A stretch of 64,000 bases of DNA from a bacterium (lineage in GTDB: Bacteria; Patescibacteriota; Patescibacteriia; Patescibacteriales; UBA12465). The stretch is taken from NCBI GenBank assembly GCA_035400585.1, contig DAOMZR010000002.1, forward strand, positions 145,121 to 209,120, in the 5' to 3' direction. The position numbers and the translations under genes are program-made. The first letter of the stretch is position 1; each line of letters opens with the position of its first letter. Below are positions 3,483-42,530 of this stretch, in pieces. The notes under the pieces were generated by a model that saw nothing but the letters and a program-made list of their open reading frames with translations, did not search any database and was not told the DNA's origin.

Positions 3483-5417
3483 TTAATTTTTATCTTTTAT
3501 TTTAACGCCAAACAAGAATCCCATTTTTTCCATCTTTTTTCCCAAGAAAACCAACAAAAAGCTTCTGGTTATTACTATAGCGCTAAACATTGAAATTGAA
3601 ACACCAATGAATAAGGTTGTTCCGAATCCTTTTAAAACACCGGTTCCAAAGCTCATTAAAACCAAACACATTAGCAAAGTAGAAAAATTTCCATCTCTAA
3701 TCGAAGGCCAAGCACGTCTAGTTCCCTCGTCGACCGCATCCCTTAAACTTCTTCCCGATCTTACCTCTTCCTTAATTCTTTCAAATATTAAAACATTGGC
3801 ATCAACAGCCATTCCAATTGATAAAATAAAACCAGCAACACCGGCTAAAGTAAGAGTAACTGAATTTAATCCATAAACAAACAAAACAACTCCGATAGCG
3901 ACAAACAATATAGTAAGAGGAAAATCTAGTATTTTTAATTCATCAAAAGCCATCAAAATTAAAGCTACAAAAAGCAATCCAAAAGTCAAAGAAAAAGCTA
4001 AAGGCAAAGCTTTAAAAATGGCCAAAACACTTAAACCATAAATAATAAGAGAAAATACTGATGATAAACCAAAAAATCTATAAAATATCAACATGAACAA
4101 GGCCACTAAGATAATACCTATAATTCCAGCCTCTAAACTGTCAACAATAGATTGATGTCCTAAGGTAGCTCCCACTGTTTTTTGATTAATAAGTTCTATC
4201 GGAACTGGTAGAGCGCCAGCCTTCAATCTTTGCACCAACTCTTTGGCTTCATCAATAGTAAAATTACCACTAATAACTGCTTTTCCACCGGAAATTTTTT
4301 CATTAACATTAGGAACACTAATTGGATAATCATCTAAATAAATAGCTACTGGTCGACCAACATTTCTTTCTGTTATTTGTTCAAACAATTGTGAACCTTC
4401 TTCATCAAACTCCAAAGAAACTTCCGGTCGATTGTCATTAGGATTAAATTGCAAGACAGCTCTTTTCAGATTTTTTCCAGTTAATTCAGTATTCTTCCAG
4501 TTTTCTGACATACTTTTCAAATAATCTTCTGTCATTTTAATCAAAGCTATTTCTCGAACCTTGTATTCTTGTAATTTGGATTCTTCACCCATTCTTTTGT
4601 CTTCCAGTTTTAAAACTTTAATAAAGTTTTCATTTTCAAAAACACTAGAAATTTGGCCAACAGATAAATCTTTTACTAAATTATAGTTTTCTGGATCATT
4701 TTCGTTTATCCAGCCCAAATCGCCATTATTTTCTGTACCAGGAGAATTTGGATCATCAGAAACTTTAAGAGGGGTATTGTTGGCAATGGCTAATTGAGCA
4801 AAATCATTACCTTCATTTATTTTTTGTAATATTTCATCCATTTTAGTTTGAAGGCCTTGATTGTAATTATTCATCAAACTTAAAGATTGTTCGTCAATGC
4901 TAATATTTTCAGTATCTTGCTCTTTAAATTCCAATTTAGGAGTTTCGCCAATTTCCTTAATAGCATCATCTACATTTTTAATTCCAGCCAATTCAACTAT
5001 AATTCGATAATCATTATCTATGGTCTTGTTAATTTGAATTACCGGCTCACTAACACCAAAAGTATTCACCCTTCTTTCAATAACATCCCTAACGCCATCT
5101 AGTAAATCGTCTTTATCGGCATCGCTAATATTAGAAACATCGGCCTGATAAATTAATTGAGAGCCGCCTTGAAGATCCAATCCTAATCTGAATTGATTTT
5201 CTTTAATTTTTGGCAAAACAATAGTATTGCTAGTTTTTTCTGCTAGCCATGAAGAAAAAGCATTATACTTATAGTCTCCAATTTGGATAGCAACCAATAA
5301 AAAGAAAACGACCACTAAACCGAATATCCAGCCATTCTTTTTTTTGCTGGAAAAAAAACTTATTTTTTGTTTAGACATAATATATAGATAACTTATTATT
5401 TTAAAATCTAAAAACAA
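3483..5417 (-). CDS. secD: Protein translocase subunit SecD with a parvulin-like insert in the periplasmic P1 head
   Basis: The 644-aa ORF has LGLDLQGGSQLIYQAD, a VELAG..LEFK base, ..ISGG.AVISG..ALPVPIE and six C-terminal TM helices. Residues about 170-275 read INEGNDFAQLA..NGDLGWI..ENFIKVLKL, which resembles PpiC. Confidence 0.85.
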   Translation of the reverse strand: MFLDFKIISYLYIMSKQKISFFSSKKKNGWIFGLVVVFFLLVAIQIGDYKYNAFSSWLAEKTSNTIVLPKIKENQFRLGLDLQGGSQLIYQADVSNISDADKDDLLDGVRDVIERRVNTFGVSEPVIQINKTIDNDYRIIVELAGIKNVDDAIKEIGETPKLEFKEQDTENISIDEQSLSLMNNYNQGLQTKMDEILQKINEGNDFAQLAIANNTPLKVSDDPNSPGTENNGDLGWINENDPENYNLVKDLSVGQISSVFENENFIKVLKLEDKRMGEESKLQEYKVREIALIKMTEDYLKSMSENWKNTELTGKNLKRAVLQFNPNDNRPEVSLEFDEEGSQLFEQITERNVGRPVAIYLDDYPISVPNVNEKISGGKAVISGNFTIDEAKELVQRLKAGALPVPIELINQKTVGATLGHQSIVDSLEAGIIGIILVALFMLIFYRFFGLSSVFSLIIYGLSVLAIFKALPLAFSLTFGLLFVALILMAFDELKILDFPLTILFVAIGVVLFVYGLNSVTLTLAGVAGFILSIGMAVDANVLIFERIKEEVRSGRSLRDAVDEGTRRAWPSIRDGNFSTLLMCLVLMSFGTGVLKGFGTTLFIGVSISMFSAIVITRSFLLVFLGKKMEKMGFLFGVKIKDKN

Positions 5418-6149: not shown

Positions 6150-6176
6150 TATTGAAAAGATTGTTAAGATAAACAA

Positions 6177-6212
6177 AAAAAGACCAAAATATTTGGTCTT
6201 TTTTTTATTTTT
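6177..6212. terminator. Bidirectional rho-independent terminator between convergent clpP and the 375-aa gene
   Basis: The hairpin AGACCAAATATTTGGTCT sits between an A-run and a T-run (aaaaaagaccaaaatatttggtctttttttt). Confidence 0.45.
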
Positions 6213-6224: not shown

Positions 6225-7352
6225 TTATTTCAATTTAAAGGAGTTAATCATCATTCTAAAAATATTATAATAACTAGCCATTTTATTTTCTGGAAAACTA
6301 TAAACTATACTATAAACATTTTCTTTTTTATCATCGGTTAAATAAAATGAGTAAAAGTCAGAACTATAGACGCCAGACCAACCTTCTTTTTCTATAACTG
6401 ACAAAGAATCAGCCACTTCAAAGAATCTAGAAAAATACCAAGACTCTATATTTTTCTTATCTTCATTTTTTTCAACTAAAACTTGAATAAATGAACTATC
6501 ATCGATTAAGAAAATAACCGAGGTGCCATCGGACAGAGCTTTAATTTCAAATTTTTTAGGATAAAAAATATCATAAGAAAATGAACCGTTTGAATGCTTG
6601 TCAATGTTCGGATTGGTTGATATAGCCCCCTGACCAGCTGGATTGTATAAATTAGTAAGCTCTGTTAAATCATCATAACCATCGCTATCACTGTCTACAC
6701 TAATATTATTAGTGCCCAAAAGACTTTCCTCGTCATCGTTCAAACCGTCACCATCAGTATCTGAAAAAGAATCAAACATAATAACATCATCTTGATTGAT
6801 GTTTTCTTCAGTTGTTGTGTTGGTTTCATCGGAAGTGTCTGTATTAATTATATCACTTGAACTAGCAACGTCTGTTTCGTCAATAAAGGGCAACTCATCA
6901 ATTTCATTTTGCTCATTTGATTGTTCTTCTATAGTGTTTTCTTCCGAGATATTTTTGTTTTCCAGTTCTTCACTTACAATATTATTATTGGTTTTATTAA
7001 TGTTTGATAAAAAACTAAATGAAGGCATTTTCAGAGAAAAATTTTGAGGATCTTTAATATAAGAAAAAACTGCATAGGCCAAAAAGGCGACGATAATAAC
7101 ACCAAAAAAAACAATTAAAAAACCGATTTTTTTCCCTTGATGTTTTTTTTCTTGTTGATTTTTTTCTTCCAAAACTGATCCTGAAAAATTGTCTGCTGAA
7201 TCACTTTTTTTAACAGCTGTTTCGAACCTTCCTGACTTATAACCCTTTGGCATTCTGTGAACATTAAAAACAGGATTTTTAATTTGTTTTTTTTCAGAAT
7301 CAACTGAACCATCGCTAGAATTTTCCTTCTTTAAGTTCTTATCATCAATCAT
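6225..7352 (-). CDS. Membrane-anchored protein with an acidic region carrying thrombospondin type-3-like Ca-binding repeats
   Basis: The 375-aa ORF has a single TM (GFLIVFFGVIIVAFLAYAVF), an extracellular D/E-rich region with DTDGDGLNDDEE and DSDSDGYDD, and a C-terminal globular domain. It is a paralog of the adjacent 263-aa protein. Confidence 0.55.
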   Translation of the reverse strand: MIDDKNLKKENSSDGSVDSEKKQIKNPVFNVHRMPKGYKSGRFETAVKKSDSADNFSGSVLEEKNQQEKKHQGKKIGFLIVFFGVIIVAFLAYAVFSYIKDPQNFSLKMPSFSFLSNINKTNNNIVSEELENKNISEENTIEEQSNEQNEIDELPFIDETDVASSSDIINTDTSDETNTTTEENINQDDVIMFDSFSDTDGDGLNDDEESLLGTNNISVDSDSDGYDDLTELTNLYNPAGQGAISTNPNIDKHSNGSFSYDIFYPKKFEIKALSDGTSVIFLIDDSSFIQVLVEKNEDKKNIESWYFSRFFEVADSLSVIEKEGWSGVYSSDFYSFYLTDDKKENVYSIVYSFPENKMASYYNIFRMMINSFKLK

Positions 7353-7363: not shown

Positions 7364-8155
7364 TTAAAGACTAAATTTTTCTACTAAATTTGAAAATTTT
7401 TGTTTAAACATCTCTAAATTTTTAAATAAAGAAGTATCTATAACGCCACCACCCAATGGATTGTAGCCACTGTTCATCTCTTGTCCATCAAGATAAGTGT
7501 CCCCGTCTGTGTCTTGGTTTAATGGATCGGTTCCAATTATCAATACTTCTTCAGAGTCGCTTAAACCATCACCATCAGAATCAGGATTATATAAATTGGT
7601 TTTGTAAGTGTATGTTTCGTCGTAATCACTAAGGCCATCGTTGTCGGAATCTAAGTTTTTTAAAACATCTTCTGGTGATGGTTCGTCGCCCATAATATCG
7701 TCACTACTCGTTGCTTCATTTTCATCTATTAAAATATTTTCGTCGACAACAGTTGAACCTTCTGGTTCTCGATTGTTGTTTTGTTCTTCATTTGTCTCAC
7801 TTTCTTCTTGATTAACATTTTGTTGATTTGTCTGTTCTAATGCTTGTTTGTTTTGCATTGATTTTGGCAGAAGAATCTGAGAATAAACAAAGTAAGCACC
7901 AGCGCCAATCAAGGCAATAACGATTATAAAAATAAACATTTTTTTCAAAATACCGCTGCTCTTTTTTTCATCATCATACAAAGATGAGTTGGAAATTTTT
8001 TCATTTTTCAAGCCGTTGCCTGAACTCATTGCTGGAGGTTGATTATTAATTTGATTTCTAAAATTTTGACCGATATTTTTACTAGCTGAATTTGGATCAG
8101 TGTCGGCAAAAATATCGTCAACTCCGTCCGATTTTTTTTGTAAATTGTCGAACAT
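7364..8155 (-). CDS. Membrane-anchored protein with thrombospondin type-3-like Ca-binding repeats
   Basis: The 263-aa ORF has a single TM (IFIIVIALIGAGAYFVY) followed by DSDNDGLSDYDE, DSDGDGLSDSEE and DTDGDTYLDGQE repeats of the form DxDxDGxxDxxE. Confidence 0.55.
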   Translation of the reverse strand: MFDNLQKKSDGVDDIFADTDPNSASKNIGQNFRNQINNQPPAMSSGNGLKNEKISNSSLYDDEKKSSGILKKMFIFIIVIALIGAGAYFVYSQILLPKSMQNKQALEQTNQQNVNQEESETNEEQNNNREPEGSTVVDENILIDENEATSSDDIMGDEPSPEDVLKNLDSDNDGLSDYDETYTYKTNLYNPDSDGDGLSDSEEVLIIGTDPLNQDTDGDTYLDGQEMNSGYNPLGGGVIDTSLFKNLEMFKQKFSNLVEKFSL

Positions 8156-8234: not shown

Positions 8235-11200
8235 TTATTGAAAACACATATAAGAACCACCAGAATCGTAACAACCAAAATCAGCATAAACATGTGTGTC
8301 ACTGCTTATAGTAAAAGAACAATAAGGCTGAGAGCCAAAACATGGACCAGTCCAATTTTCAAAAACAGTAGGAGAATATGCTGAAGCTTCTAGGTTAATT
8401 GTTGAACCATTGTTGACAGTATATTCACACATAAAGTCGGTGCAATTTCCTTTATATGAACCATTTTCTTGTACTGAGACATTTGATCCATATTCATAAC
8501 CATTGATAAAAACAGTGAGTGTTCTAGGCATTGAAAGTGTCGTAAAATTAGCAACCAAACTACTGTAAGCAGTGCCGGCGCTGTTTATAGCATAGGCTCT
8601 AACATAATACATTGAACCAGGGGTTAGGCCGGTTATATTAGACGTAAACGCTCCAGTTCCACTACCACTAACAATTTTAGTGCCAGTGCTTGTTGTAGGC
8701 AAAGTACTAGTTTTAGAATAGACAACGCCTCTTTCTGTGACAGTTGCCCCACCATCACTGGTTACATTACCACCCGACACAGCTGATCCGGTAGTAATAC
8801 TGCTGGTCGGAGCAATGGTAACCGTAGGCAAAGTAACCGCGCTAACCCATTTAGCATACAAAGTTATATTAGATGTTTGATTATAAATGGTCGAAGAAGT
8901 ATATCGAGTACCAGTACCATTTATGCCAGTAAACCAATCACTAAACATGCTTCCACTTTTGGTTGGCGTTGGTAAAGTTCCAATGGCGGAATTATAAGTT
9001 ACAATCTTGCTACTTGGTAAAACACTTCCCCCATCAGCGTTAAAAGATATTGTATAAGTATTAGCTGTCCATTTAGCATACAAAGTCACGCTAGCTGTTC
9101 CCATCGTATAACTAGCTCCGTTAGAATAAATAACCGAGCCAGTAGAAGACGTTGCCCAACCAGCAAAAGAATAACCGGGCTTAACAAATTGATTAAGGGT
9201 CAAATTAGCACTAGCCCCACTAATTATAGATTGACTAGCCATAGTTCCAGTAGCTGAAGCGTCATTTTTATCAAAAATAACAGAGTAGGTTATTGGGGTC
9301 CATTTAGCATACAAAGTAACCGGACTAGTTGTCATGTCCCAAGTTCTAGCACTACTCATTGAATTTGTATAATATTGCGAACCCAGACCACCAGTCTGAT
9401 TGTAATAGCCACCGAAAGAATAACCACTTCTTACCGGAGAAATAGCTGTCGGCATAGCCGATCCATAAGTGGCAACAACACTGCCAGTTCCACTGGTTCC
9501 ACCCTGAGAATCTAAATTGACTGTACTTATGAAGGGCGTCCATTTAGCATAAAGTATTAATCCTGTGCTCGGTATTTGAATCACTGCATTTGGCAAATAA
9601 TTAGAACCAGTTCCATCGGTTTTTGTATTCCAACCGACAAAATTATATCCAGTTTTAACCAATCCACCCTGTCCAGCAATTGTTACATTGGTGCCAGTAT
9701 CTCCTGTTTGAGTTGCCGGAGCTGTCCCCCCAGTTTGACCGTTGCCATTGTAACTAACCGATGAAGTCGTTTTGGTTGTAAAAGGAAAAGTTGATCCATA
9801 AACCGTCCCGAAAGAACTAGTGATATAGGATTTAACTGAATATTCTATGCCAGGAAATAAATTAGACATAGTTAAGGAAAAAGATCCAGAACAAGAAGAA
9901 GAAACAACTTTTGTTTCCGAGACAAAATGACTAGAATCATTAGACCAATATATTAAACCGCACTCTGAAATAGATACATTGCTTGGATTTGAGATTGTCC
10001 CACCAGAAGTAGCCGATGAACTAGTTATATTACTTACATTGGTTGTTGATATACTAGGGGCAACTGGCAAAACAAAAGTTTTGGTATCGCTACTAACACC
10101 AACTCTATCTCCATAAGAATCTCTATTCATGGCAAAGGATTTAAAATAATAAGTCACTCCTGGAGTAAATTTGGAGACAGAAACGCCCTTGCTGAAAGTT
10201 CCAATAGCGTAAGGACTGTTGGCTAAAATACAATTATTAACGTTTAAACTACAAGCACCGATGTACGTTTCTAGAGATGAAGCTGAAGTGCTCCAAACAA
10301 AACCCATTGCTAAAATAGCACTACCAGAAACTAAATCACCGCCACCATTGTCTGACAAATATCCACTAAAATTAATATTTCCACTAGCCAAGGTTTGTTG
10401 ATTGACAGTTACAACCGGATAATCAGCTCTAGTTTTAAAACTTTTGGTTGCTCCGTAAGAAATGCCTGCCTGATTAACCGCATAAGCTCTATAATAATAT
10501 AGATAATTTCTAGTTAAATCGGAAAGTGTGTGTATGTAAGAAGAATTGTCGGATATAGATGCTTCATAGCTACAACCATTATTAGACGCACAAGAGGAAA
10601 CATTAGCAATGCTCAAATTTGAAGATGCTGGCGAGGTTACACATCCTCTACCGCCAACATAATTGCCACCAGCAGATATTATGCGCCCGTTGCATTTAAA
10701 AGAATTCGAGGTTACGTCGGAATGAGATACCGTTTCTACCTCCGGTTTAGTAAAAACACTAAAATTATGAGTACCCTCGCTAGACATTCCAAAGCTATTG
10801 GTAATTTTAGCTTTTATGGTTTTTGCCCCCAAAGAATTAGCTACGCCAGATAAAGTTTTATTAGCAGCGCTAAAAGTTAAAAAACTTGGTTTTTCAATTA
10901 TATCTACTGTAATATATTCGCCCGGCTTGCTAGAAGATATCTCACAACTATAATTATTATTTAGAGCCACCGAATTAGAGCAGTTGTTAAAAACTATACT
11001 TGGAACATCGGCTGTAAAAGTAATATTAAAATTAACTGAGGTTTGCGCTTGATGAGGGTCTTTGGCTGTAATTTTAAAACGATGAGTACCAACGTGGCTA
11101 GAATTAAAAACATTAGGAGTGTTTATCGAATATTTGTTTTTAATCACTAAGGAATAGCTCTCTTTATTAGCATCTAAAATAGATAAAACCATTACCAACT

Positions 11201-12980
11201 TATTGTTAAATAAAGCGCTTCCAGTAAATTCAACTAATTTATCGACGTCAGGTTTTATTTCCCAAGTATTTACGCAATTATTTGATAAGTCTAATTGACA
11301 AACTATTAATGTTTGTAATTTACTCTTGTCGTTTATAGAGATTGGAAAAGAGAAGTCCTGACCAGAACTAAGATTACTGCTGTAGTTTGAACTAACCTGA
11401 ACTGAAGGATTTTGATTAGCTATATATATCGGAAAATTTTTGATTGTTTCATATCCAGAAGAATTCTTAACTGAAACTCCAATAATATATCTTTTGTTTT
11501 TTTCCTGAACAGTAGGAGAGTCTATTGGTTGAGAATCACCGGCAATAGTAGATTTTAATAAAATTGTTTCATCAGAATTAGTTAATTCACGAGCTGGATA
11601 TTTGTTTGGCGTCCAACTGGACCAGTTCGATTCAGAGCAATCGGTTATAATTGTATTATCTGGGTAAAGCGGTTTTCCTGGTATGCAACCAGAAACAACC
11701 CAACTAAGTGCTTGATCTCTTGGATCTTTAGCTTTTATATATCCCTCGAAAGAAGTCCCACTATGACCAGTCATTAAGGCTTCTTCGAAATAGGGGTTAT
11801 TATATTGTGGTAATTCATCATCCACTGGAATGTATGGAGGATTAAAGTCATCAGTGTTTTCACCAGATGGCAAGGTAAAAGATTCACCCCAATATTCTGA
11901 TGATTCCATTGGAGAATAAATACTAGCCGATAAGCCCTTCGGATCACTTACATAAGAAAAAACTGAACTGTATTCTGGTAAAACAAAATTAGTATAATTA
12001 ACTGGCTTTTCAGTACTTAAAAACACCGCCTTGTCATTTTCCCAACAAGTTAGAAGATCAAAATTTGAATTTTCATCATAGCAAGAACTTATTCTATTAA
12101 TAGAGTCGGTAACACCGGAAACGCTAATTTGGTTTAAAAATGTTTGCTGCCAACTTGGCCAAGAAGAAATAGCCACATAAGGAACATAGGTTCCGGACGA
12201 TAAAATAGGGTAGTGACCATTTAAGTTTTTATAAGCTTCTAATTTTGTTTTGATTATTTTTAATTTTTCCAATCTTTCCACATCTCTAATCAGCATTGAT
12301 TTTGGACTATCACAAAAAAGATTGTTTGGACAATCAGAATCTAATAAACAAGCCGGGGTATTGACTGGTTCTTTATTATAGTCATCTTCTTTTATTATAC
12401 ATCTGTTTTTTTGGTATATTTTCCCAACAACATTTACTTCCGAAGAGTCATTTAACAGGTGAGCTGAATCCTGCCCAACATAACCGCCACAAATATAACC
12501 ACTGGGACAATCTGTTTCTGACTTACAAATTTTACTAGAAATACTACAATGACCAATTTTATCTTTTAAGTTAGTATTCAATTTCCAATTTTTCAAAATT
12601 TTTCCAAAAATATCGATGGTATTATCATCAGCTTCTTGGTTATAAGAAATTAAATAAATATTAAAATAGATTTTATTATTTTCTAAATCAATATTAGCGG
12701 CTGAAATATATACAGTTCTGCCATCTCGAATTGCCTTATAGCCATCAACTATTAAAGACTGCGGGGATCCAGTAAACCCTTGCATTTTATACCATTGTTG
12801 AATGTTATAATTTTCCGGGTTTGGAATGACACGAATAGCAATAGCATCTGGGTCGTTTTCACCCAAAGAAGAAACACTGTCCTCTGAACTTGGTGCGGCC
12901 AAAACAAAAAGAGGAAGTATTAAAAAAAATAATAATACAAAAAAGCTTTTAAAAAAATTTACTCTCATTTTTTTAAACAT
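8235..12980 (-). CDS. Giant secreted surface protein (1581 aa) with FN3/Ig-like domains and four or more C-terminal Listeria-Bacteroides (Flg_new) repeats
   Basis: It has an N-terminal signal peptide (FFVLLFFLILPLFVLAAPSS). Modules ending in LYAKWT recur four times (GYNFVGWNTKTDGTGSNY..LYAKWT, GYSFGGYYNQTGG..LYAKWT, GYSFAGWATSSTG..LYAKWT, ..LYAKWV), which matches the Flg_new/List_Bact repeat pattern. Confidence 0.7.
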   Translation of the reverse strand: MFKKMRVNFFKSFFVLLFFLILPLFVLAAPSSEDSVSSLGENDPDAIAIRVIPNPENYNIQQWYKMQGFTGSPQSLIVDGYKAIRDGRTVYISAANIDLENNKIYFNIYLISYNQEADDNTIDIFGKILKNWKLNTNLKDKIGHCSISSKICKSETDCPSGYICGGYVGQDSAHLLNDSSEVNVVGKIYQKNRCIIKEDDYNKEPVNTPACLLDSDCPNNLFCDSPKSMLIRDVERLEKLKIIKTKLEAYKNLNGHYPILSSGTYVPYVAISSWPSWQQTFLNQISVSGVTDSINRISSCYDENSNFDLLTCWENDKAVFLSTEKPVNYTNFVLPEYSSVFSYVSDPKGLSASIYSPMESSEYWGESFTLPSGENTDDFNPPYIPVDDELPQYNNPYFEEALMTGHSGTSFEGYIKAKDPRDQALSWVVSGCIPGKPLYPDNTIITDCSESNWSSWTPNKYPARELTNSDETILLKSTIAGDSQPIDSPTVQEKNKRYIIGVSVKNSSGYETIKNFPIYIANQNPSVQVSSNYSSNLSSGQDFSFPISINDKSKLQTLIVCQLDLSNNCVNTWEIKPDVDKLVEFTGSALFNNKLVMVLSILDANKESYSLVIKNKYSINTPNVFNSSHVGTHRFKITAKDPHQAQTSVNFNITFTADVPSIVFNNCSNSVALNNNYSCEISSSKPGEYITVDIIEKPSFLTFSAANKTLSGVANSLGAKTIKAKITNSFGMSSEGTHNFSVFTKPEVETVSHSDVTSNSFKCNGRIISAGGNYVGGRGCVTSPASSNLSIANVSSCASNNGCSYEASISDNSSYIHTLSDLTRNYLYYYRAYAVNQAGISYGATKSFKTRADYPVVTVNQQTLASGNINFSGYLSDNGGGDLVSGSAILAMGFVWSTSASSLETYIGACSLNVNNCILANSPYAIGTFSKGVSVSKFTPGVTYYFKSFAMNRDSYGDRVGVSSDTKTFVLPVAPSISTTNVSNITSSSATSGGTISNPSNVSISECGLIYWSNDSSHFVSETKVVSSSCSGSFSLTMSNLFPGIEYSVKSYITSSFGTVYGSTFPFTTKTTSSVSYNGNGQTGGTAPATQTGDTGTNVTIAGQGGLVKTGYNFVGWNTKTDGTGSNYLPNAVIQIPSTGLILYAKWTPFISTVNLDSQGGTSGTGSVVATYGSAMPTAISPVRSGYSFGGYYNQTGGLGSQYYTNSMSSARTWDMTTSPVTLYAKWTPITYSVIFDKNDASATGTMASQSIISGASANLTLNQFVKPGYSFAGWATSSTGSVIYSNGASYTMGTASVTLYAKWTANTYTISFNADGGSVLPSSKIVTYNSAIGTLPTPTKSGSMFSDWFTGINGTGTRYTSSTIYNQTSNITLYAKWVSAVTLPTVTIAPTSSITTGSAVSGGNVTSDGGATVTERGVVYSKTSTLPTTSTGTKIVSGSGTGAFTSNITGLTPGSMYYVRAYAINSAGTAYSSLVANFTTLSMPRTLTVFINGYEYGSNVSVQENGSYKGNCTDFMCEYTVNNGSTINLEASAYSPTVFENWTGPCFGSQPYCSFTISSDTHVYADFGCYDSGGSYMCFQ

Positions 12981-12987: not shown

Positions 12988-15900
12988 TTAAGATATTTTT
13001 ATTAAAGAAAAGTCATCAATATAAAAATCACTACCGAGAGCAACCGTATCGGCATAACTTAGAGTTATAGCAAATTCCATCATTTTAGTATAATCACTTC
13101 TTAGCCATAAAGACATTTTGTCATTATATTCAAAAGTTTGAAAATAAGTTTGCCAGTCAACATAGTTGCCAGCCAATATATTTTTAGAAACAACGCCGGT
13201 ATAGCATTTAGTTTGAGCTGGTGATTGAACACAACAATAATTAGCTTGTTCTGAGCAAGGATATCCTCTTCCGCTAGCACAAGGATTTTGTCCCTCAAGA
13301 GGTGTCGGACTGAGCGCTCCATTTAACCAGACAAATGGCGATCTCAGGGCTGTTGGAGAAGACATGGCCATACACTGGCTAGACCAGCCAGAAGAGGGGG
13401 AAATATTAACAGTTATTTCTCCAACAGAATTACCTTTATAGTTAAACTTAACTGCGTATTTTTCGTTTTGTTTAAAATTCAAAGACAAAAGATTATATTT
13501 TAAACTAGCCCAAACAACTCTATTGGTATTCATCCAACAAAAACTCTCTCCTTCTTGATATATGGCTGGGGCTGTTTTTTTACAATCATCAGCATTGCTA
13601 AATCTGCAAGTTTTGTTTACATTGTCCCAAGTGCAACCAGACATGCTACTACAAAGAGCCTGGCCACATTTGCCAGGATAAACGTGTCCCGATTCTTGTT
13701 TAATCAGAACGCTTTTGTTTCCGGAGTTACTAGTCAAATTGCTAACCCCAATTGAAGAATATGTTTTCAGGGATTTTGACCATCCCGGTGGCAAACCGCT
13801 AATATCAACCGATTCAAAATCAATATTGTCAAATATATACTTAAACAAACTCACCGTTGGATCATTAAAATAAACAAAAACCTCTGATGATTTTTCACTT
13901 TCTTCTCCAGCTGGATTGATGGAACTTATAACAAAATAGAAAGTATCGTTTTGAGTTCCGGCCAAGCTGATAGTCACCTCAGTTGAATTATTTTGTGTTA
14001 AAATAGAATTACCATAAACACCAGAAACAGCACCCCTATAAACTTTATATTTAGAAACTTCACTGGCAGGAGCAGTCCAAGAAACTTTTATTAAACGATC
14101 TTCGTGAGAAAGTATTTCAACTTTTGGACTGGTTGGTTTATCGGAAATATTTGAACTAGTCGGGGTAACAGAAACAGTAGAAGAAAAACCAGTTTCAGCT
14201 AAATTTTCACTTAAAGCGGTTATTTTTATTTCATAAGAAATATAATTGGTAAGGTTGCTCAAAGTATAACTACATTTATATTTGTTATCTTCAATAGTGC
14301 AAACATTTGCTGGATCTACAACTTCTTCTTTATAAACACTCTCTTCGTTTGTTTTATAGTAAATTTTATACTTATCAACTAAAGAAGTTTCTGACTCCCA
14401 GATAATTTCAACCTCCCCTCCGTCTCCCGTGTCGTTAGATGAGATAGAATTAACAAATCTAGGAATTCTTTCTTTAAAGAAATAAGCTTCCTTCAAAAAG
14501 TTAGATATACAAAGTCCGCCCGCAGGGCAATCACCATCATTAGAACAAATTCTGCTAGGCAAATTACTACAAGTTCTTATTGGGCTTTCTCCTTTAATAA
14601 TTGCTAAGTTACTTAAAAACGCTGGAAGATCATCACTGGTTGTGTCTTCTCCAGAATCACGACAGTAGTAAAATTCATAATTATAATAACCAAAGGAACT
14701 GTCGGAATCTCTCCAAGGAGACCAAGTTCCATCATTTTTAACTGGCGGCCAAGGATTTTTACAAACAAAAACGTAAGCCATAACATTGCCAGCTGTGTTG
14801 TTGCCATCTAAAATAGTATTGGTATCGTCCATTTTTACTTTAGCAGCTATTGTAGTTTGAGCATCGCTAACATTTTCTTGAACAGCTATTAATCTTTTAT
14901 CACCATTTGTCGACCAAGAAACAACTTCGTCCTTAAATCCCAAAACGTCTTGAGATCCAATTATCCAATCCCAAGTCCAAGAATAGCCTAAGACTGGTTT
15001 TAAAATCTGATTATCTTTTGAAAGAGCATAAGAATAATATGCTTTATCATAATCTTTCTCAGAATCAAAAGTACTGCTATTTGAATCGTTGTCATTCTCT
15101 TTTATACTGTTTGTATTTTCAGGAAATAAATACGAATCTGGTGAAATCAAAACTTTATCAACGCTACATATTCCCCCTTGATCGGCTGGAGTATTCATAG
15201 TCGTAAATGAGAAAACGTGAGAGTTGACAAAATTTAAATTATTAAATCTTAAACGATTATCATCTCCCTCAACCCAGCTGGTATCGGAAATTTTATACCC
15301 ACGTCCGTTCATTCCAACTCCTTGATAGTTAAGTATACCGCTGGTACTGTCAAGCGCGGAATCACCTTTTACAACCACAAAATATTTTGCGCTTTCTTTT
15401 AATAAAGATTTTGGCTGAAAAATAGCCACCGTTGTTCCATCCGGATTATTTCTAAAATCAGTTGTGCCTAAAACAGAACAATAAATCTTGTCGCTAGAGG
15501 TTATATCCCCTACAACTCCAGCCAAGACATCAATTTTAAATACTCTGCTCAAATAATATAAAGGTTTTTTTATTAAATTTTTTAATTTTTCAAAAATAGT
15601 TAAATCGTTTTTGTAGCTTATAAAATATGTACCAGAAGAACAAACTGAGGAGTTTTCTTCTAATAAAAGAATGTTGTCTACAAAAGACATGTTATCCATT
15701 TTTTGATCAAAAGTAATAGAGATTGCTGCATTATGGCAAACTCCTTGTTGTTCGTTTGTCGGAGATGTTTCCGTAATGTTCGGCCTAGCCTGACAACAAG
15801 TATCAAAACCACAACCAACATTTTCTGGGTCTAAACCAGCGCTTGTACAGTCGGTGTCAGAACCACAACCACAACACAAACCTCTTTCTTGTCCAGAGCA

Positions 15901-18900
15901 ACTACCTTTGTCTCTATAACAAGAAAGTTTTTCGTTTATAGCTGAACACTGATCTGTGGCTGCATCAGGATCACAGCAACAAAAACCACAATCAGGGGCA
16001 GCACCCAATAAACCTGTATCAGTTAAACAATCTAATCTATTGCAAACATCGGAACAAACAGTTGTGGTGGTTGAGATATTATTAGCACAACTTTCGCCAA
16101 AACCAGCCGAAGAATCTTTACACGAACTGGTGCATATATCTAATTTCAGATATTTGCCGGTTGTGTTTGGATAATTAATGGCACAAAGATTATTGGTTGT
16201 ACTACAATCATATCTTTTACAATAGCCAACACTGCCACTAGTTTCGCCCACTTCAAACCTATCGCCAGAAGAACAAACAGAATATTTAGCATCCCAACAA
16301 CAACTATTATTAGAGACACACTCTGTAGCTGATGTTAGTTGTTTACAATTTTCATTACAAGATTTATCACAAGATTCTTTTGTTTTATAATCGCCAACAA
16401 CAGAAATGTTGTTGGAGCAAACTGTTGGATCCGAAGAGTCACAACTATAATAAGGACAATAGCCAATACTCGGAGAGCTACTTCCCCAAACAGAACTATC
16501 ACTAGCACCACCACGACAAACTCCCTCTACCTGATCCCAACAACAAGTCGTGTTATGTGCTTTACAAGAATCTTCACCTAAAGATGTACAATCCAAACAA
16601 GCACCAGTTGGATATTGTGTATTAACTTCACAATATTTTCCACTAGTACCAACACAATTACAAGCAAGATCATTTACCTGTGGTTGATTTTCGTCTATAT
16701 TACAACCACTGCATACGCCAAAATTTGTATTTTCAGTTCCAGGATTAGCACTAATTCCACAAGAATAAGAACAAACCAAAGGAGAGCAACAGGCAGGATT
16801 TCCGGTGCTAGTATTTTTATCTATTTCACAACAACATTGACAGGCGGGTTTGTCCGCCTTGATACATTTGTCATTAATACAGTTAGATCCACTAGGACAT
16901 AGCTTAGGAGAGGAACAAGTTCCGTCAGTAGAACAAACTGAATCACCAGAACAGATAGAACAAGTTGACGGTGATTCAATAGAAGCTACATCAATACATT
17001 TTCCACTAGAAATCATCGTCCATTGAACTCCATCAATTTTTGGACATAATGTATTTACAGATATTTCATAAAAGCTTTTTTCGCCAACCCCTTCTAGAGA
17101 ATATTTTTTACAAACAGCAATTTTGTTTTCCACACCAACGCCTTCTCCTAAATCATAGGAAACTGTTTTTGAACATGTCTGACCAGTAACAACACATTTA
17201 TCCGATTCCGCTAAATACTGGCAACTTTGACCATTGGTGCCACAATAAGAAAAAGAGGAGCAGTCTTGTTTGCAAACACCGACCTCAATTAAATTTTCTC
17301 CATTATATGAAGAACAAAGACCAGGGGAGTTTGGACAAACATAGCCCGTTGGACAAAAATTATAACTAGCACAACTAAAAATGTTGTCGTCTTCTTCTAT
17401 GTCAGTTGAATCAAAGCCAGTGTCAAATCCCCATTCAAAAACAGAGCTTTCTGGAGAACCGCTCAAACAATCATTAACATTAACGACACAAGCCCCTGGG
17501 TTAGTGGTTTGAGAACCACAACAAATTTCTCCGCTTAAACAATCTGAATTACTGGAACAAGATTTAACATTAAAATTTAAGCCATTACCAAGTAGCCCTC
17601 CTCGAGAAATTTTAACCGGACCAGTAATAGAATCTAAGGCCACTAGAGACTCTGATTTATCAGCTCCATCCTCAGAAACAACATTCAAATTGTTACTTGT
17701 TTTATTAAAATTAAAAATCGCTTTTGTGTCTTTTCCGCTTTCCTTAAAATATTCTCCCCAAAAAGAAACTTTTGTTGTGCCAGCTGGTCCGGAGTAAGGA
17801 CTAATTTTGCACAAACTTGGAAGAAGTGGGTAAGTGGAACTAGCCACAAAAGAATCTGTTGAAAGGATATCTTCCCATGTTCCTATTTTAAGTTTCAATT
17901 TATAATCAGAATTATTATAATCAATATTTTCTGGAACTTTTACTATTATTTGATCATCTTTCCAAACGGAATGCAAACAAACTAAAGGAAAATCAAAGCT
18001 AGCATTTATATCGCTACCATTATAAAAATAAACTTGACTATCACCTCTGCTGGCCCCAAACCCTGAACCATAAATACTAACATACTGACCGGACTTGCCA
18101 ATACTTGGCTCAAAAAAAGATATAGATGGTGCTTTTGGTGGTTCTGGTAATTTTTTAAAATCGATAAAATTACTTGGAACACTTGATGTTAGTTTTTTAG
18201 CAAAAGTACTAGTGTCTCCAGTTTTTAAATTTGGGGCAATTATTGTACCCGAAAGATCATTATTAAAAACATTAGGAGTAAAGCCAGAAACATTATTAGA
18301 ATAATTACCAAAATAAGCTTTACTATCATTAAGATTAACTCCATAATATAAAACTGAATCATTGGCCTTGGCTTCGGCTGGATTTATTCTACATAGCCCG
18401 GGGCGACTGATCGAATTTATTTTTATTGGAACAACCTGAGGACCATTTTCATCATCGCTACGATCTCTTTTTCCAGAAGCAGTAACAACCTCAACTGCAA
18501 CATTATCTGAAGGATTAAACCCGGTTGGAACCGCTACTATTATTTGAGTATTAGACCAAGTGTTTCCACAATAAGAATTAACCGAAGAAGGCATTATTCC
18601 GGCAACAAGAGAGTTGTTTGCTTGATTAATAAAATTAACACCAGAAAGAATTTCATTGTATTCGTCAAAATTATAGCCTTTAATTGTTACAAAATTTCCA
18701 GTGGCAGCATTAGGTGTTGTTATGTCACAAATACCGCTGGAACAATCATCATCTTGAGCACAAACTTTATTAATGTCATCTTGGCAAAAACCACCCAAAG
18801 GATTTATTCCTGTTACAACTGGACTGCCAGCACAAACACAAGACTCGCAAGTTAATCCATGACTTGGATTACAAATGCCTTCGCTTTGACAAGCTCCTGT

Positions 18901-19719
18901 TAATCCATCACCACAAGGTTCTCCTAATTCAGAAAAATTTTCTTCTTCTTCGCTAGGAGATTCGCAGGTGCAAGTATTAGCATTACAAACTAAATTTGGG
19001 TTTGAACAAGTTGGCTCAGCCTCATTATCACAAACACCGTTTGTTGTTTGACCGCAAGGATCACCAACCCCTTCTTGTACACATTTACATTCGTTATTAC
19101 AAAAAAGATTAGAATTACAAAGAGTGTTATCAGGAAGACAAGAATTTCCCAAACCAGAACTACACCACGAACCCTCACTTCCGGGTAAACAACTAGATCC
19201 AACACAAACTCCCCATTTATTATCAGAACAAGTTGAAATTCCTCCACAACCACAAGATTTGATGGAACCACTTTCACAATAAGTACTGCTGTTTATTCCC
19301 GTTGCATCACCTAACTGATTAAAAATTAAAGTTGTTATTCCCCAGGCAGACAAAATAATAGCCAAACCTATGGCACCCGATTTTAATATTCCCTTGGCTT
19401 TCGTTATTTTTTCTTCATTACCCTCCGACCTCATCCAAACAAAACCGCCGTAGATAACTATAGCTACGGCAATTATTCCTAAAATACTAAGAGAAACATT
19501 TATTATTTGTGAGGCTATTGTTCTGGGATCTCTGTCTGATAGATTTAATTCATTACCAACAAAACCTTGACCAAAATTATCTCCTTCTGAAGCCAAAACA
19601 TTAAAACTAAAAACACCAAAAAAAAGAAATAATAAAAGCAGAAAAAACGAAATTTTTCTTGAAATTTTTTTTCTATCAAACATAAAAAAATAAGACAATA
19701 TTTCTAAGATCTCTAGCAA
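12988..19719 (-). CDS. Giant cysteine-rich cell-surface protein (2243 aa) with an N-terminal membrane anchor, EGF-like Cys-rich arrays and FN3 domains
   Basis: It is a continuous 6.7-kb ORF. The N-terminus has TM helices (FFLLLLFLFFGVFSF; ILGIIAVAIVIYGGFVW; GAIGLAIILSAWGITTLIF), followed by long C-x-C-rich tracts (..CNCVGTSGKYCE..CLDCTSLGEDSC..) and C-terminal FN3-like modules (KYKIYYKTNEES.., KVSWTAPASEVSKYKVY). Confidence 0.7.
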   Translation of the reverse strand: MLEILEILSYFFMFDRKKISRKISFFLLLLFLFFGVFSFNVLASEGDNFGQGFVGNELNLSDRDPRTIASQIINVSLSILGIIAVAIVIYGGFVWMRSEGNEEKITKAKGILKSGAIGLAIILSAWGITTLIFNQLGDATGINSSTYCESGSIKSCGCGGISTCSDNKWGVCVGSSCLPGSEGSWCSSGLGNSCLPDNTLCNSNLFCNNECKCVQEGVGDPCGQTTNGVCDNEAEPTCSNPNLVCNANTCTCESPSEEEENFSELGEPCGDGLTGACQSEGICNPSHGLTCESCVCAGSPVVTGINPLGGFCQDDINKVCAQDDDCSSGICDITTPNAATGNFVTIKGYNFDEYNEILSGVNFINQANNSLVAGIMPSSVNSYCGNTWSNTQIIVAVPTGFNPSDNVAVEVVTASGKRDRSDDENGPQVVPIKINSISRPGLCRINPAEAKANDSVLYYGVNLNDSKAYFGNYSNNVSGFTPNVFNNDLSGTIIAPNLKTGDTSTFAKKLTSSVPSNFIDFKKLPEPPKAPSISFFEPSIGKSGQYVSIYGSGFGASRGDSQVYFYNGSDINASFDFPLVCLHSVWKDDQIIVKVPENIDYNNSDYKLKLKIGTWEDILSTDSFVASSTYPLLPSLCKISPYSGPAGTTKVSFWGEYFKESGKDTKAIFNFNKTSNNLNVVSEDGADKSESLVALDSITGPVKISRGGLLGNGLNFNVKSCSSNSDCLSGEICCGSQTTNPGACVVNVNDCLSGSPESSVFEWGFDTGFDSTDIEEDDNIFSCASYNFCPTGYVCPNSPGLCSSYNGENLIEVGVCKQDCSSFSYCGTNGQSCQYLAESDKCVVTGQTCSKTVSYDLGEGVGVENKIAVCKKYSLEGVGEKSFYEISVNTLCPKIDGVQWTMISSGKCIDVASIESPSTCSICSGDSVCSTDGTCSSPKLCPSGSNCINDKCIKADKPACQCCCEIDKNTSTGNPACCSPLVCSYSCGISANPGTENTNFGVCSGCNIDENQPQVNDLACNCVGTSGKYCEVNTQYPTGACLDCTSLGEDSCKAHNTTCCWDQVEGVCRGGASDSSVWGSSSPSIGYCPYYSCDSSDPTVCSNNISVVGDYKTKESCDKSCNENCKQLTSATECVSNNSCCWDAKYSVCSSGDRFEVGETSGSVGYCKRYDCSTTNNLCAINYPNTTGKYLKLDICTSSCKDSSAGFGESCANNISTTTTVCSDVCNRLDCLTDTGLLGAAPDCGFCCCDPDAATDQCSAINEKLSCYRDKGSCSGQERGLCCGCGSDTDCTSAGLDPENVGCGFDTCCQARPNITETSPTNEQQGVCHNAAISITFDQKMDNMSFVDNILLLEENSSVCSSGTYFISYKNDLTIFEKLKNLIKKPLYYLSRVFKIDVLAGVVGDITSSDKIYCSVLGTTDFRNNPDGTTVAIFQPKSLLKESAKYFVVVKGDSALDSTSGILNYQGVGMNGRGYKISDTSWVEGDDNRLRFNNLNFVNSHVFSFTTMNTPADQGGICSVDKVLISPDSYLFPENTNSIKENDNDSNSSTFDSEKDYDKAYYSYALSKDNQILKPVLGYSWTWDWIIGSQDVLGFKDEVVSWSTNGDKRLIAVQENVSDAQTTIAAKVKMDDTNTILDGNNTAGNVMAYVFVCKNPWPPVKNDGTWSPWRDSDSSFGYYNYEFYYCRDSGEDTTSDDLPAFLSNLAIIKGESPIRTCSNLPSRICSNDGDCPAGGLCISNFLKEAYFFKERIPRFVNSISSNDTGDGGEVEIIWESETSLVDKYKIYYKTNEESVYKEEVVDPANVCTIEDNKYKCSYTLSNLTNYISYEIKITALSENLAETGFSSTVSVTPTSSNISDKPTSPKVEILSHEDRLIKVSWTAPASEVSKYKVYRGAVSGVYGNSILTQNNSTEVTISLAGTQNDTFYFVISSINPAGEESEKSSEVFVYFNDPTVSLFKYIFDNIDFESVDISGLPPGWSKSLKTYSSIGVSNLTSNSGNKSVLIKQESGHVYPGKCGQALCSSMSGCTWDNVNKTCRFSNADDCKKTAPAIYQEGESFCWMNTNRVVWASLKYNLLSLNFKQNEKYAVKFNYKGNSVGEITVNISPSSGWSSQCMAMSSPTALRSPFVWLNGALSPTPLEGQNPCASGRGYPCSEQANYCCVQSPAQTKCYTGVVSKNILAGNYVDWQTYFQTFEYNDKMSLWLRSDYTKMMEFAITLSYADTVALGSDFYIDDFSLIKIS

Positions 19720-19787
19720 TCAAATTTTAACACAATTACAGCAATAAGTAAACAAATTAATTCATTAATTTTTCTTTTTAAAAAATG

Positions 19788-26280: not shown

Positions 26281-27402
26281 TTAATCCTTTATACATCTCA
26301 CAGAATAAGCAAACGGTCTGTAATATGTATCACGATAAATAAACGAATCAAAAATGCTTAAATCGCGTTGCCATGGGTATAAATCACCAGACGACAGCCA
26401 AAGGTCTGCACCGCTGCCAAAATTATAAAAAGAGCCATCTACACTATTTCTGTACCCGGAAGGCAACAAATTAAAACCACTCTGAGCACAGCCAAGAAAG
26501 TCATAACACCAAGAATCGCTTTTTAAAGAATCACCTTCATTTGTTCCTCTTTGTTCTATTGTGATGGTGTCTTTAGGAAATTGAATTTCACAATTAGAAT
26601 TACCCAGAAGAGAACAAACAGTTCTTTCCAAATCAGTAAATTCATAGTGAGTAGGGACGTGCCAACCATTAGGACAGGCTCCCTGACTACCCTCTACTGT
26701 TTCTCCGTTCATGGCAGAGCTCCATTAATAAAGTTTTCCGTGCAAATTACAATTACTAGAATTGTTATTATAACAACCACACCAACCCTCATCCGAACCA
26801 TTTACCCATGTGACAGAAGAGCAGCCATTATCATAATTAAGATTTTCTGCCATCCAAACTTGTGTTCCTATTTTTACCCAATTATATGTTTGGCTATCTC
26901 TTGTGTCTGTAAAAGTACCTGATGTTCCAGCAAAAGGATCTGATGGTTCGCTAAATTCACTACTACCGATTATTATTCCCCCCGGTGTCATTTGCTTAGC
27001 TCCTTCGGGTAGGTCTGACACTTGTTTTCCGGTACAAAAATCTATAGTATAGCTAGACCCATTATCTCTGGGAATATAAACATAAGTATTAGAGGCTTCT
27101 AAACAGTTGCCATCGGCTGGCGATGGAGCCAAAGGAATAGAATACATAAATATTTCCTGCGAAGAAGAAGAAACAATAACACCTCCATTCCACTCATCGG
27201 CTGTCGGATAACGGCTATTTTCACTAAAAAACAATTCTAGGGCAGTTTGAAGTTGTTTCATATCAGCCATTCTTTTAGCATCTCTAGCGTTTTGTCTAGC
27301 CTGTTGTAAGGCCACCACTGCTAGAGTAGCCAGTATTCCAATAATAGCTATTACTACTAAAAGTTCGATGAGGGTGAAAGCCTTTTTATTGGTGCTTAAC
27401 AT
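26281..27402 (-). pseudogene. Type IV pilin-like N-terminus fused to a FISUMP (Fibrobacter succinogenes major paralogous) domain, interrupted by one in-frame TAA at 26725..26727
   Basis: The 225-aa ORF (MLSTNKKAFTLIELLVVIAIIGILA..; ..VKIGTQVWMAENLNY..GKLY*) and the 143-aa ORF (..CPNGWHVPTHYEF..SVRCIKD) are in the same frame. The stop falls inside the conserved GRLYxW motif of a single FISUMP domain. Confidence 0.55.
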
Positions 27403-28845: not shown

Positions 28846-30489
28846 TTAAAAATTTTTAACCATATAAGTATCTTTTAATTTATACCCCAACTTCCTATAA
28901 TACCCTCTAACACCAACCCCAGAAATAACGGCCAAGTCTTTAAATTTATTTTTTTGAGCAATCTTTTCAGCTTCAGCCATAAGTTTTTTACCTAAACCAC
29001 TATGCTGTACTTTCTTTTTGTCACCAACCGGCACAAGTTGTCCATAAACATGCAATTCCCTAACAATGGCCGAGCTAATCTTACTATTTCTATCAATTCT
29101 CAAACGACAAAAACCATATAATATTTTTTTATCTAAACTATCAAAACTAATAAAATATTCTTCTCCGCCGGAAGATTTATATTTTAAGATATTTAACTTC
29201 AAATCTTTTTCATTTATCAGCTTATCTTTTGCTTCGCGACATCTAATACAATTACAAACAACACCCCTGTCTTTCATTACTTGTCTTAAATTAGTAATTT
29301 TATTTCCAGCCTCAATTGATTCCCCGGGAATGTCTCTAATTAATCTAATTATTCTGGTATAAACTGGCACTATTTTTTTGGATTCAATTATCACTTTCTC
29401 TAGTTGTTTGTCTGAATATGCTTTATATTTTCCCTCTTTCCACCAACGGTATAACAGACTATCTTTAACAACCGTGGTTGGATAAAATTTAATTTGATCG
29501 GGTTGAAACCTCTCATCACTATAAAGCTCCTGAAACATTTTTATATCTTTTCTAGGATTGGAGCCAGGAAGGGCCGGCATAAAATGATAAGTAACTTTAA
29601 AACCAAATTGTTTTAATTTTTTAGTCGCCTCAGCAATTGTTTTTACATCATGACCTCTTTTATTTAATTTTAATATTTTATCGTCGACAGCCTGAACACC
29701 AATTTCAACTCGCGTACAACCAAGTTCTCTCATTTGCCACAACTCTTTATCATCTAAATAATCTGGTCTTGTTTCTAGGGTTAAGCCAATTATATTATAT
29801 TTAGCTTTTTCGTTTTTTTTCTGCTCTGTTTTTAGTAAATCTTTTACTTCCTCTAATCTCAATTTGTTAGAATATAAATATTTAAGAATTTTTTTAGGCT
29901 GAATCTGTTTCTCGCTTTTTTCAATGTTAATTTCTTTTTTTATTTTTTGATAATCGTTAGCAGCTTTAAAACAATTGAGTATATACCAATATTTATATTT
30001 TTCTGGCAGATAACTCCAAGTTCCACCAATAACTATTAATTCTATTTTATTGGGTTGATGCCCGTTATTTTCCAAAGCTCTAAGACGAAAAACAGTTTGT
30101 AAATAAGGGTTGTATTTTAAACGAATGGCTCTCATAACGGCTGGTTCGTTAGGCAGATAACTGACAGGGACGTCTGGTTTTTTAGGACAATAAGCACATT
30201 CTCCGGGACAAGGATAGGGCTTTGTTAGAACAGCAACCGGAGCCACACCGGAAAGGGTTCTTACTGCTCGCTTTTTTAAAAGAGAAACAAAAAAATCTCC
30301 GTGCTTTTTTTGCCAATCCTTGCTAATTTTATTTTTTTTAATTAATAAAAAATACTCCTTTAAAACATCGGAGTTTAATAAAAGTTTTAATTTATATTTC
30401 TTAGACAATAATCTTTTTAAAACATTGAAATCTTCTAAATTTTTTATTTTGGAAATCTGATTTATAATTTCTAATATTGCTTCTTGCAT
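28846..30489 (-). CDS. Elp3-family radical-SAM / GNAT acetyltransferase (tRNA wobble-uridine modification enzyme homolog)
   Basis: The 547-aa ORF has AVLTKPYPCPGECAYCPKKPDVPVSYLPNEPAVMRAIRLKYNPYLQTVFRLRALENNGH, a good match to the Elp3 radical-SAM core, plus a C-terminal GNAT fold (..SGVGVRGYYRKLGYK). Confidence 0.7.
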   Translation of the reverse strand: MQEAILEIINQISKIKNLEDFNVLKRLLSKKYKLKLLLNSDVLKEYFLLIKKNKISKDWQKKHGDFFVSLLKKRAVRTLSGVAPVAVLTKPYPCPGECAYCPKKPDVPVSYLPNEPAVMRAIRLKYNPYLQTVFRLRALENNGHQPNKIELIVIGGTWSYLPEKYKYWYILNCFKAANDYQKIKKEINIEKSEKQIQPKKILKYLYSNKLRLEEVKDLLKTEQKKNEKAKYNIIGLTLETRPDYLDDKELWQMRELGCTRVEIGVQAVDDKILKLNKRGHDVKTIAEATKKLKQFGFKVTYHFMPALPGSNPRKDIKMFQELYSDERFQPDQIKFYPTTVVKDSLLYRWWKEGKYKAYSDKQLEKVIIESKKIVPVYTRIIRLIRDIPGESIEAGNKITNLRQVMKDRGVVCNCIRCREAKDKLINEKDLKLNILKYKSSGGEEYFISFDSLDKKILYGFCRLRIDRNSKISSAIVRELHVYGQLVPVGDKKKVQHSGLGKKLMAEAEKIAQKNKFKDLAVISGVGVRGYYRKLGYKLKDTYMVKNF

Positions 30490-42202: not shown

Positions 42203-42220
42203 ATTTTTATTAAAAAACCA

Positions 42221-42516: not shown

Positions 42517-42530
42517 TAAATTGTGTCTTG

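Follow-up and report, generated by a model that had tools for sequence, protein, structure and literature searches.

We analysed a 64,000-nucleotide (nt) stretch of a patescibacterial genome (GenBank assembly GCA_035400585.1, contig DAOMZR010000002.1, positions 145,121 to 209,120), referred to below as the window, and in particular a giant minus-strand gene within it, gene B, whose product appears to join a small secretion-system pilin to a very large, cysteine-rich ectodomain. An uninterrupted open reading frame (ORF) of 2,243 codons counted from a TTG lies at 12988..19719, just as an earlier reading of the same DNA, made from its letters without database searches (the sequence-only reading), had reported. 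The mechanical ORF reaches upstream to this TTG at 19719, which is directly 3' of a promoter-like -10 box; because the TTG abuts this box and orthologues begin MFD/MFN-(R/K)K, the ATG at 19683 (MFDRKK...) is the likely start, giving a protein of 2,231 amino acids (aa). The gene and the segments assigned to its product are as follows.

12988..19683, minus strand: gene B, coding sequence for the giant pilin fusion (2,231 aa when read from the ATG at 19683), with the stop codon at 12988-12990
19591..19683, minus strand: predicted Sec-type signal peptide, aa 1-31 (basic n-region, hydrophobic core, cleavage between ...NVLA and SEG), from sequence and hydropathy
19300..19524, minus strand: hairpin of the VirB2-like pilin type, aa 54-128 (two helices joined by the conserved loop WMRSEGNEEKITKAK), from Pfam PF18895 and identity to small pilins
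18727..19278, minus strand: Cys-rich block 1, aa 136-319, 28 Cys, from the Cys pattern; no Pfam match
17584..18726, minus strand: three to four IPT/TIG beta-sandwich domains, aa 320-700, from Pfam TIG in three stretches (E 7e-10)
15793..17559, minus strand: Cys-rich block 2, aa 709-1297 (~590 aa), 78 Cys, nearly all invariant; family-specific
13894..15792, minus strand: about six Ig-like beta-sandwich domains, aa 1298-1930, from Pfam Big_5 and fn3, AlphaFold2 (AF2), and Foldseek
12991..13893, minus strand: distal ~300-aa module, aa 1931-2231, 12 Cys, from the alignment and comparison with relatives

The sequence-only reading had described the N-terminus as a multi-helix membrane anchor. The hydrophobic helices are there: a hydropathy scan of the gene B protein gave three hydrophobic segments, at aa 6-34 (the signal peptide), 55-86, and 98-122, rather than a single cleaved signal peptide, with the sequence after aa 122 predicted to lie outside the cell, and the string quoted for the helices and their charged loop, GGFVWMRSEGNEEKITKAKGILKSGAIGLAIILSAWGITTLIF, is found at aa 79-121 counted from the ATG (nt 19321-19449). 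A generic anchor is not what they form, as judged from sequence comparison; they comprise a Sec signal peptide, whose cleavage site was placed by eye without a dedicated predictor, and a two-helix PF18895 hairpin. Residues 54-120 match PF18895 (T4SS_pilin, the pilin of type IV secretion systems [T4SS]) over profile positions 6-71 of 71, scoring 42.6 bits against a gathering score of 26.6 (E 6e-11). NCBIfam NF045849, a "pilin-like conjugal transfer protein" of Mycoplasma integrative and conjugative elements, scored 27.5 bits, below its cut-off of 40, and PF04956 gave no match in the gene B protein, a precomputed PF04956 label being present in a few relatives (P0037, P0049, and P0083). When the first 129 aa were used as the query, stand-alone PF18895 proteins of 124-143 aa were retrieved, and seven stand-alone pilins (124-133 aa) align from first to last residue with the gene B N-terminus at 41-48% identity. 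The small pilins stop at ...ATxQ, the equivalent of about aa 128, and it is there that the giant protein runs on as ...ATG-INSSTYCESG; by this alignment, the extension of ~2,100 predicted extracellular residues begins exactly where the stand-alone pilins end. Taken at the level of sequence, then, the N-terminus of the gene B protein is a complete VirB2-like T4SS-pilin module.

A search of the PDB with the pilin-module profile returned no VirB2 or TraA chain, and only spurious matches to Pizza proteins; what ties the module to classical conjugative pilins is thus its Pfam family, together with published structure-based annotation. The class III signal peptide of type IV pilins (N_methyl, PF07963) was not matched in the gene B protein and is present in another gene of the window, and no LPxTG-like sorting motif occurs anywhere in the protein, which ends in ...DFYIDDFSLIKIS. 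We know of no demonstration that the small PF18895 members polymerise into filaments. The closest stand-alone PF18895 pilins sit in tandem arrays of six genes (L076 10001-12785; P0259 contig); arrays of this kind are known from Patescibacteria and are reported to be essential in Southlakia epibionticum (PMC12102498, PMC10633639, PMC12857230). The L076 array adjoins an SHMT-FolD-RecQ block that is also found near the giant gene in the window, and there is no virB4 within 10 kb of the array. A thioredoxin-fold lipoprotein near the same array has no counterpart in the window or at the other loci and was dropped from consideration.

The extension is rich in cysteine, containing most of the 134 Cys (6.0%) of the protein: 28 in block 1, 78 in block 2, and 28 scattered elsewhere. 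The "hundreds" of the sequence-only reading was thus an overcount. Among 34 family sequences (~35-40% identity), 111 of the 134 are kept in at least 80%, and mean column identity is 0.87 for Cys versus 0.34 for other residues; the total number of Cys is even in 94 of 120 homologues. By these comparisons, the patterning is far from chance. His residues (7) and CxxC motifs (7) are few, which speaks against metal sites; CC motifs number 11. We infer that disulfides, ~60-67 of them, are to be favoured over metal coordination. Mapping of the Cys periodicity, suggested as a check to tell repeated units from unique ones, gave a mixed answer. Periodicity is weak, with a repeated part made up of three tandem ~35-aa modules of 6 Cys (z 3-5 versus shuffles) and one ~82-aa duplication (aa 1029-1112 versus 1113-1190; z 10.5), and the remainder is unique. 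The suggested EGF-like or knottin-like spacing found no backing, with no Pfam match at E ≤ 10 and no Foldseek support.

Within block 1, the three tandem modules follow the pattern C-x7-C-x5-7-C-x5-7-C-x2-4-C-x-C and are followed by an element of 4 Cys that abuts the first TIG domain; the module at aa 189-218 is present in only about one-quarter of relatives. The TIG region carries near-invariant Cys in two putative pairs, at aa 372/431 and 569/625. AF2 models were built from a 39-sequence alignment. That of aa 690-1320, spanning block 2, has a predicted local distance difference test score (pLDDT) of 80.7, and Foldseek searches with block 2 gave best E values of 0.24 in the PDB and 0.15 in BFVD; it has no Pfam match either. 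Residues 1298-1930 contain Big_5, unnamed sandwiches, a small 4-Cys knot, and two FN3 domains, so that the FN3 modules noted by the sequence-only reading are confirmed by Pfam fn3 matches in two stretches. The model of aa 1290-1960 (pLDDT 82.3) matches multi-Ig/FN3 ectodomains such as PTP-delta Ig1-Fn2 (Foldseek E 1e-15 over ~700 columns), and this part is accordingly modelled as about six beta-sandwiches in a row, with no enzyme-like feature. Pfam searches of nine sub-segments at E ≤ 10 returned nothing for block 1, block 2, or the distal (head) module, and comparison of the whole protein with the PDB by sequence gave marginal FN3/Ig matches only. The picture of a very large extracellular stalk behind an N-terminal anchor has therefore held up, in view of the topology, the near-invariant and mostly even-numbered Cys, and the TIG, Big_5, and FN3-type sandwiches; neither a lone cleaved signal peptide nor a match to a known enzyme family was found.

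A near-invariant Trp/Pro-rich motif, C-x-NPWP...W-x-PW-x-D...YYCRD...DDLP, stands out at aa 1640-1690 (window ~14614-14766) amid the moderately conserved Ig-like region and may mark a site of processing or of contact between subunits. Residues 1400-1760 of the gene B protein were also considered as a possible paralogue of the N-terminal region of the product of gene C, the next gene downstream; this was rejected, as only a short C-x5-DC-x4-C motif is common to the two (E 3e-4).

The last ~300 aa are common to only about one-quarter of the aligned relatives. In the window's clade this distal module occupies the C-terminus; seven other members (P0031, P0051, P0038, P0108, L027, L032, and L037) have it as an insertion at aa ~295-583, and in L034 it is found at the end of protein C. 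Other family members carry Fib_succ_major, Laminin_G_3, CBM_4_9, Malectin, or VWA in its stead. Judging from these placements, the module is exchangeable and has been shuffled within the family. Weak hints of CBM_4_9 and PCMD (E ~0.04) were each obtained in 1 of 10 members. With this module as the sole query, a homologue search gave no matches although full-length proteins of 99% identity exist, which probably reflects the word and length prefilter of the search.

A search with the full-length protein returned clusters of proteins 1,500-3,700 aa long, at least 136 in number, and almost all of these carry PF18895 together with TIG, Big_5, or fn3. Those that are named are annotated as "hypothetical" or "IPT/TIG domain-containing" and are assigned to Falkowbacteria, Parcubacteria, Pacebacteria, or "Patescibacteria group." When block 2 was scored against 1.84 billion representative sequences, 165 matches were obtained; most are full-length proteins (~1,400-2,800 aa) in which the block is similarly placed in the interior, at ~aa 600-1,800, and the shorter ones are fragment-like. 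As the matches are mostly full-length family proteins, block 2 is specific to the giant-pilin-fusion family, which, as far as these sequence searches reach, is confined to Patescibacteria (Falkowbacteria and relatives).

Gene B is followed on the same strand by three further genes, C, D, and E, and this neighbourhood was compared by ORF calling and hidden Markov model/BLAST searches at 75 loci fetched overall, 69 of which are from GTDB species representatives. The features that surround gene B in the window are as follows.

19724..19752, minus strand: promoter-like site TTTACT-17-TAAAAT with TG, upstream of gene B; consensus match only
8235..12980, minus strand: gene C, 1,581-aa secreted protein, starting 7 nt after gene B
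7364..8155, minus strand: gene D, Cys-free acidic protein with a single membrane pass and TSP3 repeats of the bacterial, Ca-binding type; downstream in 58 loci
6225..7352, minus strand: gene E, single-pass membrane protein, likewise acidic, in which a TSP3 repeat is combined with a conserved C-terminal domain of ~180 aa; downstream in 58 loci
6175..6205, no strand assigned: 14-bp hairpin resembling a bidirectional terminator, located where gene E and clpP converge; consensus match only

The gaps between B and C, C and D, and D and E are 7, 79, and 11 nt in the window, and the order (A)-B-C-D-E is kept in 42-58 of the 75 loci. The promoter and terminator matches give a plausible operon frame for B-C-D-E, and the hairpin at 6175..6205 probably marks the end of this transcription unit; consensus matches of this kind were not enriched over shuffles in the region. 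Gene C encodes a protein whose N-terminal ~430-740 aa are conserved and which has four Listeria-Bacteroides repeats; across loci, its length varies from 950 to 1,580 aa, and in L005, L074, and L075, the giant protein itself incorporates its N-terminal region by fusion. Directly upstream of B in most genomes (L003 7234-9975 and ~50 other loci) is a gene for protein A, of ~850-980 aa, with PF18895 and Big_5 and a Cys content of 2-3%. The operon is chromosomal and syntenic, with secDF, clpP, and wzy-like genes as neighbours, and lies ~20 kb from dnaA. The window has a G+C content of 28-38% and carries dnaA, dnaN, rnpA, and yidC; it is therefore chromosomal DNA near the replication origin. Its source is an ultrasmall, probably epibiotic patescibacterium.

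On this evidence we lean, with slightly better than even confidence, towards the view that the gene B protein is, in its default state, a membrane-rooted, disulfide-stiffened adhesin stalk. The protein would be exported by the Sec pathway, and the hairpin would stay in the cytoplasmic membrane with its loop in the cytoplasm and both ends outside, a topology drawn from hydropathy and from what is known of VirB2 and TraA. The ectodomain would then be oxidised to the full set of ~60-67 disulfides, as the invariant Cys, even counts, and scarce His suggest, to give a stalk that is stiff and resists proteases, in which the two Cys-rich blocks break up a series of about ten Ig-like domains; by a rough estimate from the domain count, it would be tens of nanometres long. 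The stalk would present the exchangeable distal module, which would bind a ligand on a host cell or substrate, a role suggested by the shuffling of this module and by the lectin, CBM, VWA, and Fib_succ_major modules found there in relatives. The protein would act with its operon partners C, D, and E and, in most genomes, with the ~900-aa pilin-fusion protein A; gene order is observed directly, and physical interaction of the partners is suggested by the gene fusions.

Several observations weigh against this view. The pilin module, cytoplasmic loop included, is the most conserved 50-aa bin of the entire protein, which exceeds the needs of a passive anchor and fits contact with an assembly machine. 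The window's own clade (the window, L001, L002, L007-L011, and L066) is without partner A, so the composition of any complex is not uniform. A search for a disulfide-forming system, another check proposed by the sequence-only reading, found no DsbA, VKOR, Dsb, or thioredoxin genes within the 64-kb window; elsewhere, an MdbA-like oxidoreductase, often beside VKOR, has been reported to be enriched across Patescibacteria (Méheust et al., bioRxiv 10.1101/335083). The distal module gave no PDB match by profile and no significant Pfam match, and no ligand-binding site was identified in the gene B protein. The case for adhesion is drawn from domain types, in a family known from sequences and predicted models.

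The conservation of the pilin module and its loop would be better accommodated if the protein were a pilus-borne modular pilin, a reading that we take seriously while holding it to be unlikely overall. A T4SS encoded elsewhere (VirB4 and its partners) would extract the hairpin from the membrane and co-polymerise it with small VirB2-like pilins, such that the giant ectodomain is displayed at the tip of, or sparsely along, a conjugative-type pilus. In its favour are the position of the F-type pilin C-terminus, on the pilus exterior, and the full colinearity with stand-alone array pilins, at the identities given above. Type IV pili offer a precedent in modular pilins such as PilB of Streptococcus sanguinis (PMC8179133), to which the giant protein would correspond on the T4SS side. 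According to the T4SS survey (PMC12102498), ~80% of Patescibacteria genomes encode VirB4, often at a site apart from the pilin genes, and a PrgB-like adhesin went undetected; the giant protein would supply that adhesin. Yet no VirB4, VirB6, or coupling-protein family was found either in the 64-kb window or, at the loci of four annotated relatives, among Pfam labels up to 10 kb away, and there is no small pilin in the window or within 10 kb at any of the 75 loci. An appendage of 2,100 aa cannot pack at every subunit position, the membrane-anchored operon partners suggest a cell-surface complex, and the failure of the pilin-module profile to find a solved VirB2 or TraA sequence also counts against a pilus. 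About as unlikely is the broader proposal that Patescibacteria VirB2-type pilins can be modular, with the giant protein and its ~900-aa partner both displayed on a T4SS-dependent filament and with block 2 representing one or more new disulfide-rich folds. Two further explanations do without adhesion or a pilus. The protein and its partners might build a surface layer or spacer that is constitutive and binds no particular ligand, for instance as an S-layer anchor or envelope stabiliser; the chromosomal, syntenic position beside housekeeping secDF, clpP, and wzy-like genes, the high conservation of the core (aa 1-1930), and the acidic, Ca-binding-type TSP3 partners, which could cross-link an envelope layer, are all compatible with such a scaffold. 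We nevertheless consider it improbable, as the shuffled, variable distal module and the lectin, CBM, and VWA modules of relatives point to ligand recognition under diversifying pressure, and a Cys content of 6% is unusual for S-layer proteins. The same Cys content, with its 11 CC and 7 CxxC motifs, could be read as metal coordination (Zn, Fe-S, or metallothionein-like), and the variable C-terminal module superficially recalls polymorphic toxins, so that an extracellular enzyme or toxin carrier might also be imagined. This seems very improbable to us: there are only 7 His in 2,231 aa, the protein is extracellular by topology, Cys counts are mostly even, and neither Pfam nor NCBIfam gave a catalytic or toxin family match. 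Moreover, the head module is also internal in relatives, the modelled region downstream of the Cys block is all beta-sandwich, and gene B is followed not by a small immunity-like gene but by the 1,581-aa gene C.

Returning to the membrane-rooted adhesin stalk, the protein shares parts of its layout with several known systems. Its N-terminal ~128 aa are colinear with the stand-alone PF18895 pilins, those of the Southlakia epibionticum array included, with the same signal peptide, two helices, and charged loop; unlike these pilins (120-150 aa, in arrays, and often near virB4), it has 2,231 aa and belongs to a different operon. Modular type IV pilins such as PilB of S. sanguinis likewise consist of a small pilin module with a bulky C-terminal graft, for which a role in tip adhesion is proposed (PMC8179133), and Fib_succ_major is used both on a type IV pilin of the window (26281-27402) and on relatives of the giant protein. 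Those pilins, however, have a class III signal peptide, N_methyl, and PilB/PilC machinery, whereas the gene B product combines a Sec signal peptide with a VirB2-type hairpin of an unrelated superfamily, and its graft is 5-20 times larger. A further likeness is to very large surface proteins of other Patescibacteria, such as those described from Absconditicoccaceae, also ultrasmall episymbionts, which exceed 1,500 aa, are targeted to the membrane or surface, and combine FN3 with adhesion-type domains (PMC13059738); a VirB2-like N-terminus and a framework of ~130 Cys are not mentioned in the part of that report available. No sequence relationship to these proteins was found, block 2 matching only the gene B family. 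The ectodomains of plexins, Met, and integrins place a Cys-rich module (PSI) before IPT/TIG domains, which recalls the 4-Cys element before the first TIG domain here; unlike them, the gene B protein has no PSI, EGF, or plexin Pfam match at E ≤ 10 and no Foldseek match for block 2. It also differs from the PrgB-type, sortase-anchored T4SS adhesins of Gram-positive bacteria in having no LPXTG signal.

Perhaps at least one-quarter of bacterial diversity belongs to Patescibacteria, whose cells seem to live attached to those of hosts. Both large surface proteins with adhesion domains (PMC13059738) and VirB2-like pilins (PMC12102498, PMC12857230) are already known from this group, and the T4SS is reported to be essential in the single species tested, Southlakia epibionticum (PMC12102498, PMC10633639). 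In the open-access full text, as far as available, of papers on Patescibacteria T4SS and large surface proteins, we found no mention of a VirB2-type pilin with a giant ectodomain; the T4SS survey counted PF18895 matches, treated them as small proteins, and noted "no adhesins" (PMC12102498). The giant pilin fusion could supply the adhesin reported to be missing. A pilin module fused to a very large, rigid ectodomain in an operon conserved across a whole lineage is a candidate for host attachment, and the pilin module offers a handle on whether Patescibacteria pilins form filaments. If the protein is indeed loaded onto a pilus, it would be the first modular T4SS pilin, giving a filament that bears an adhesin stalk of 2,100 residues and ~65 disulfides; if it is a static surface adhesin, the function would be ordinary and the anchor unusual. 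The 590-aa disulfide-rich region, which is without structural relatives, is of interest to structural biology.

Some further features of the window were noted. A cluster of dnaN, dnaA, rpl19, rnpA, and yidC lies at 37911-45340, with a cumulative GC-skew minimum at 38-40 kb, and this region is the probable replication origin, ~20 kb from gene B; according to the literature, T4SS genes are placed near the origin in some Patescibacteria. The SecD gene (3483-5417, minus strand) encodes a protein with a PPIC-type peptidyl-prolyl isomerase (Rotamase) domain inserted between its P1 subdomains, an insertion that is also seen in L001 and not in the distant L003. At 28846-30489 (minus strand) lies a gene for a 547-aa protein with radical SAM and GNAT acetyltransferase domains in an Elp3-like architecture, found at the same position in relatives. 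The type IV pilin at 26281-27402 (minus strand; N_methyl and Fib_succ_major) is split into two ORFs by an in-frame TAA at 26725-26727, inside a conserved motif that here reads GKLY-stop-W. Its L001 orthologue is one intact 352-aa protein; the split is a pseudogene, a strain polymorphism, or a sequencing error. Finally, a 57-aa ORF at 62640-62813 (plus strand) consists almost entirely of KKVAKKPVAKK repeats and is rich in Lys, Ala, and Pro, a histone-H1-like composition; the opposite strand, a candidate for the coding strand, reads as a Phe/Ala/Thr repeat.

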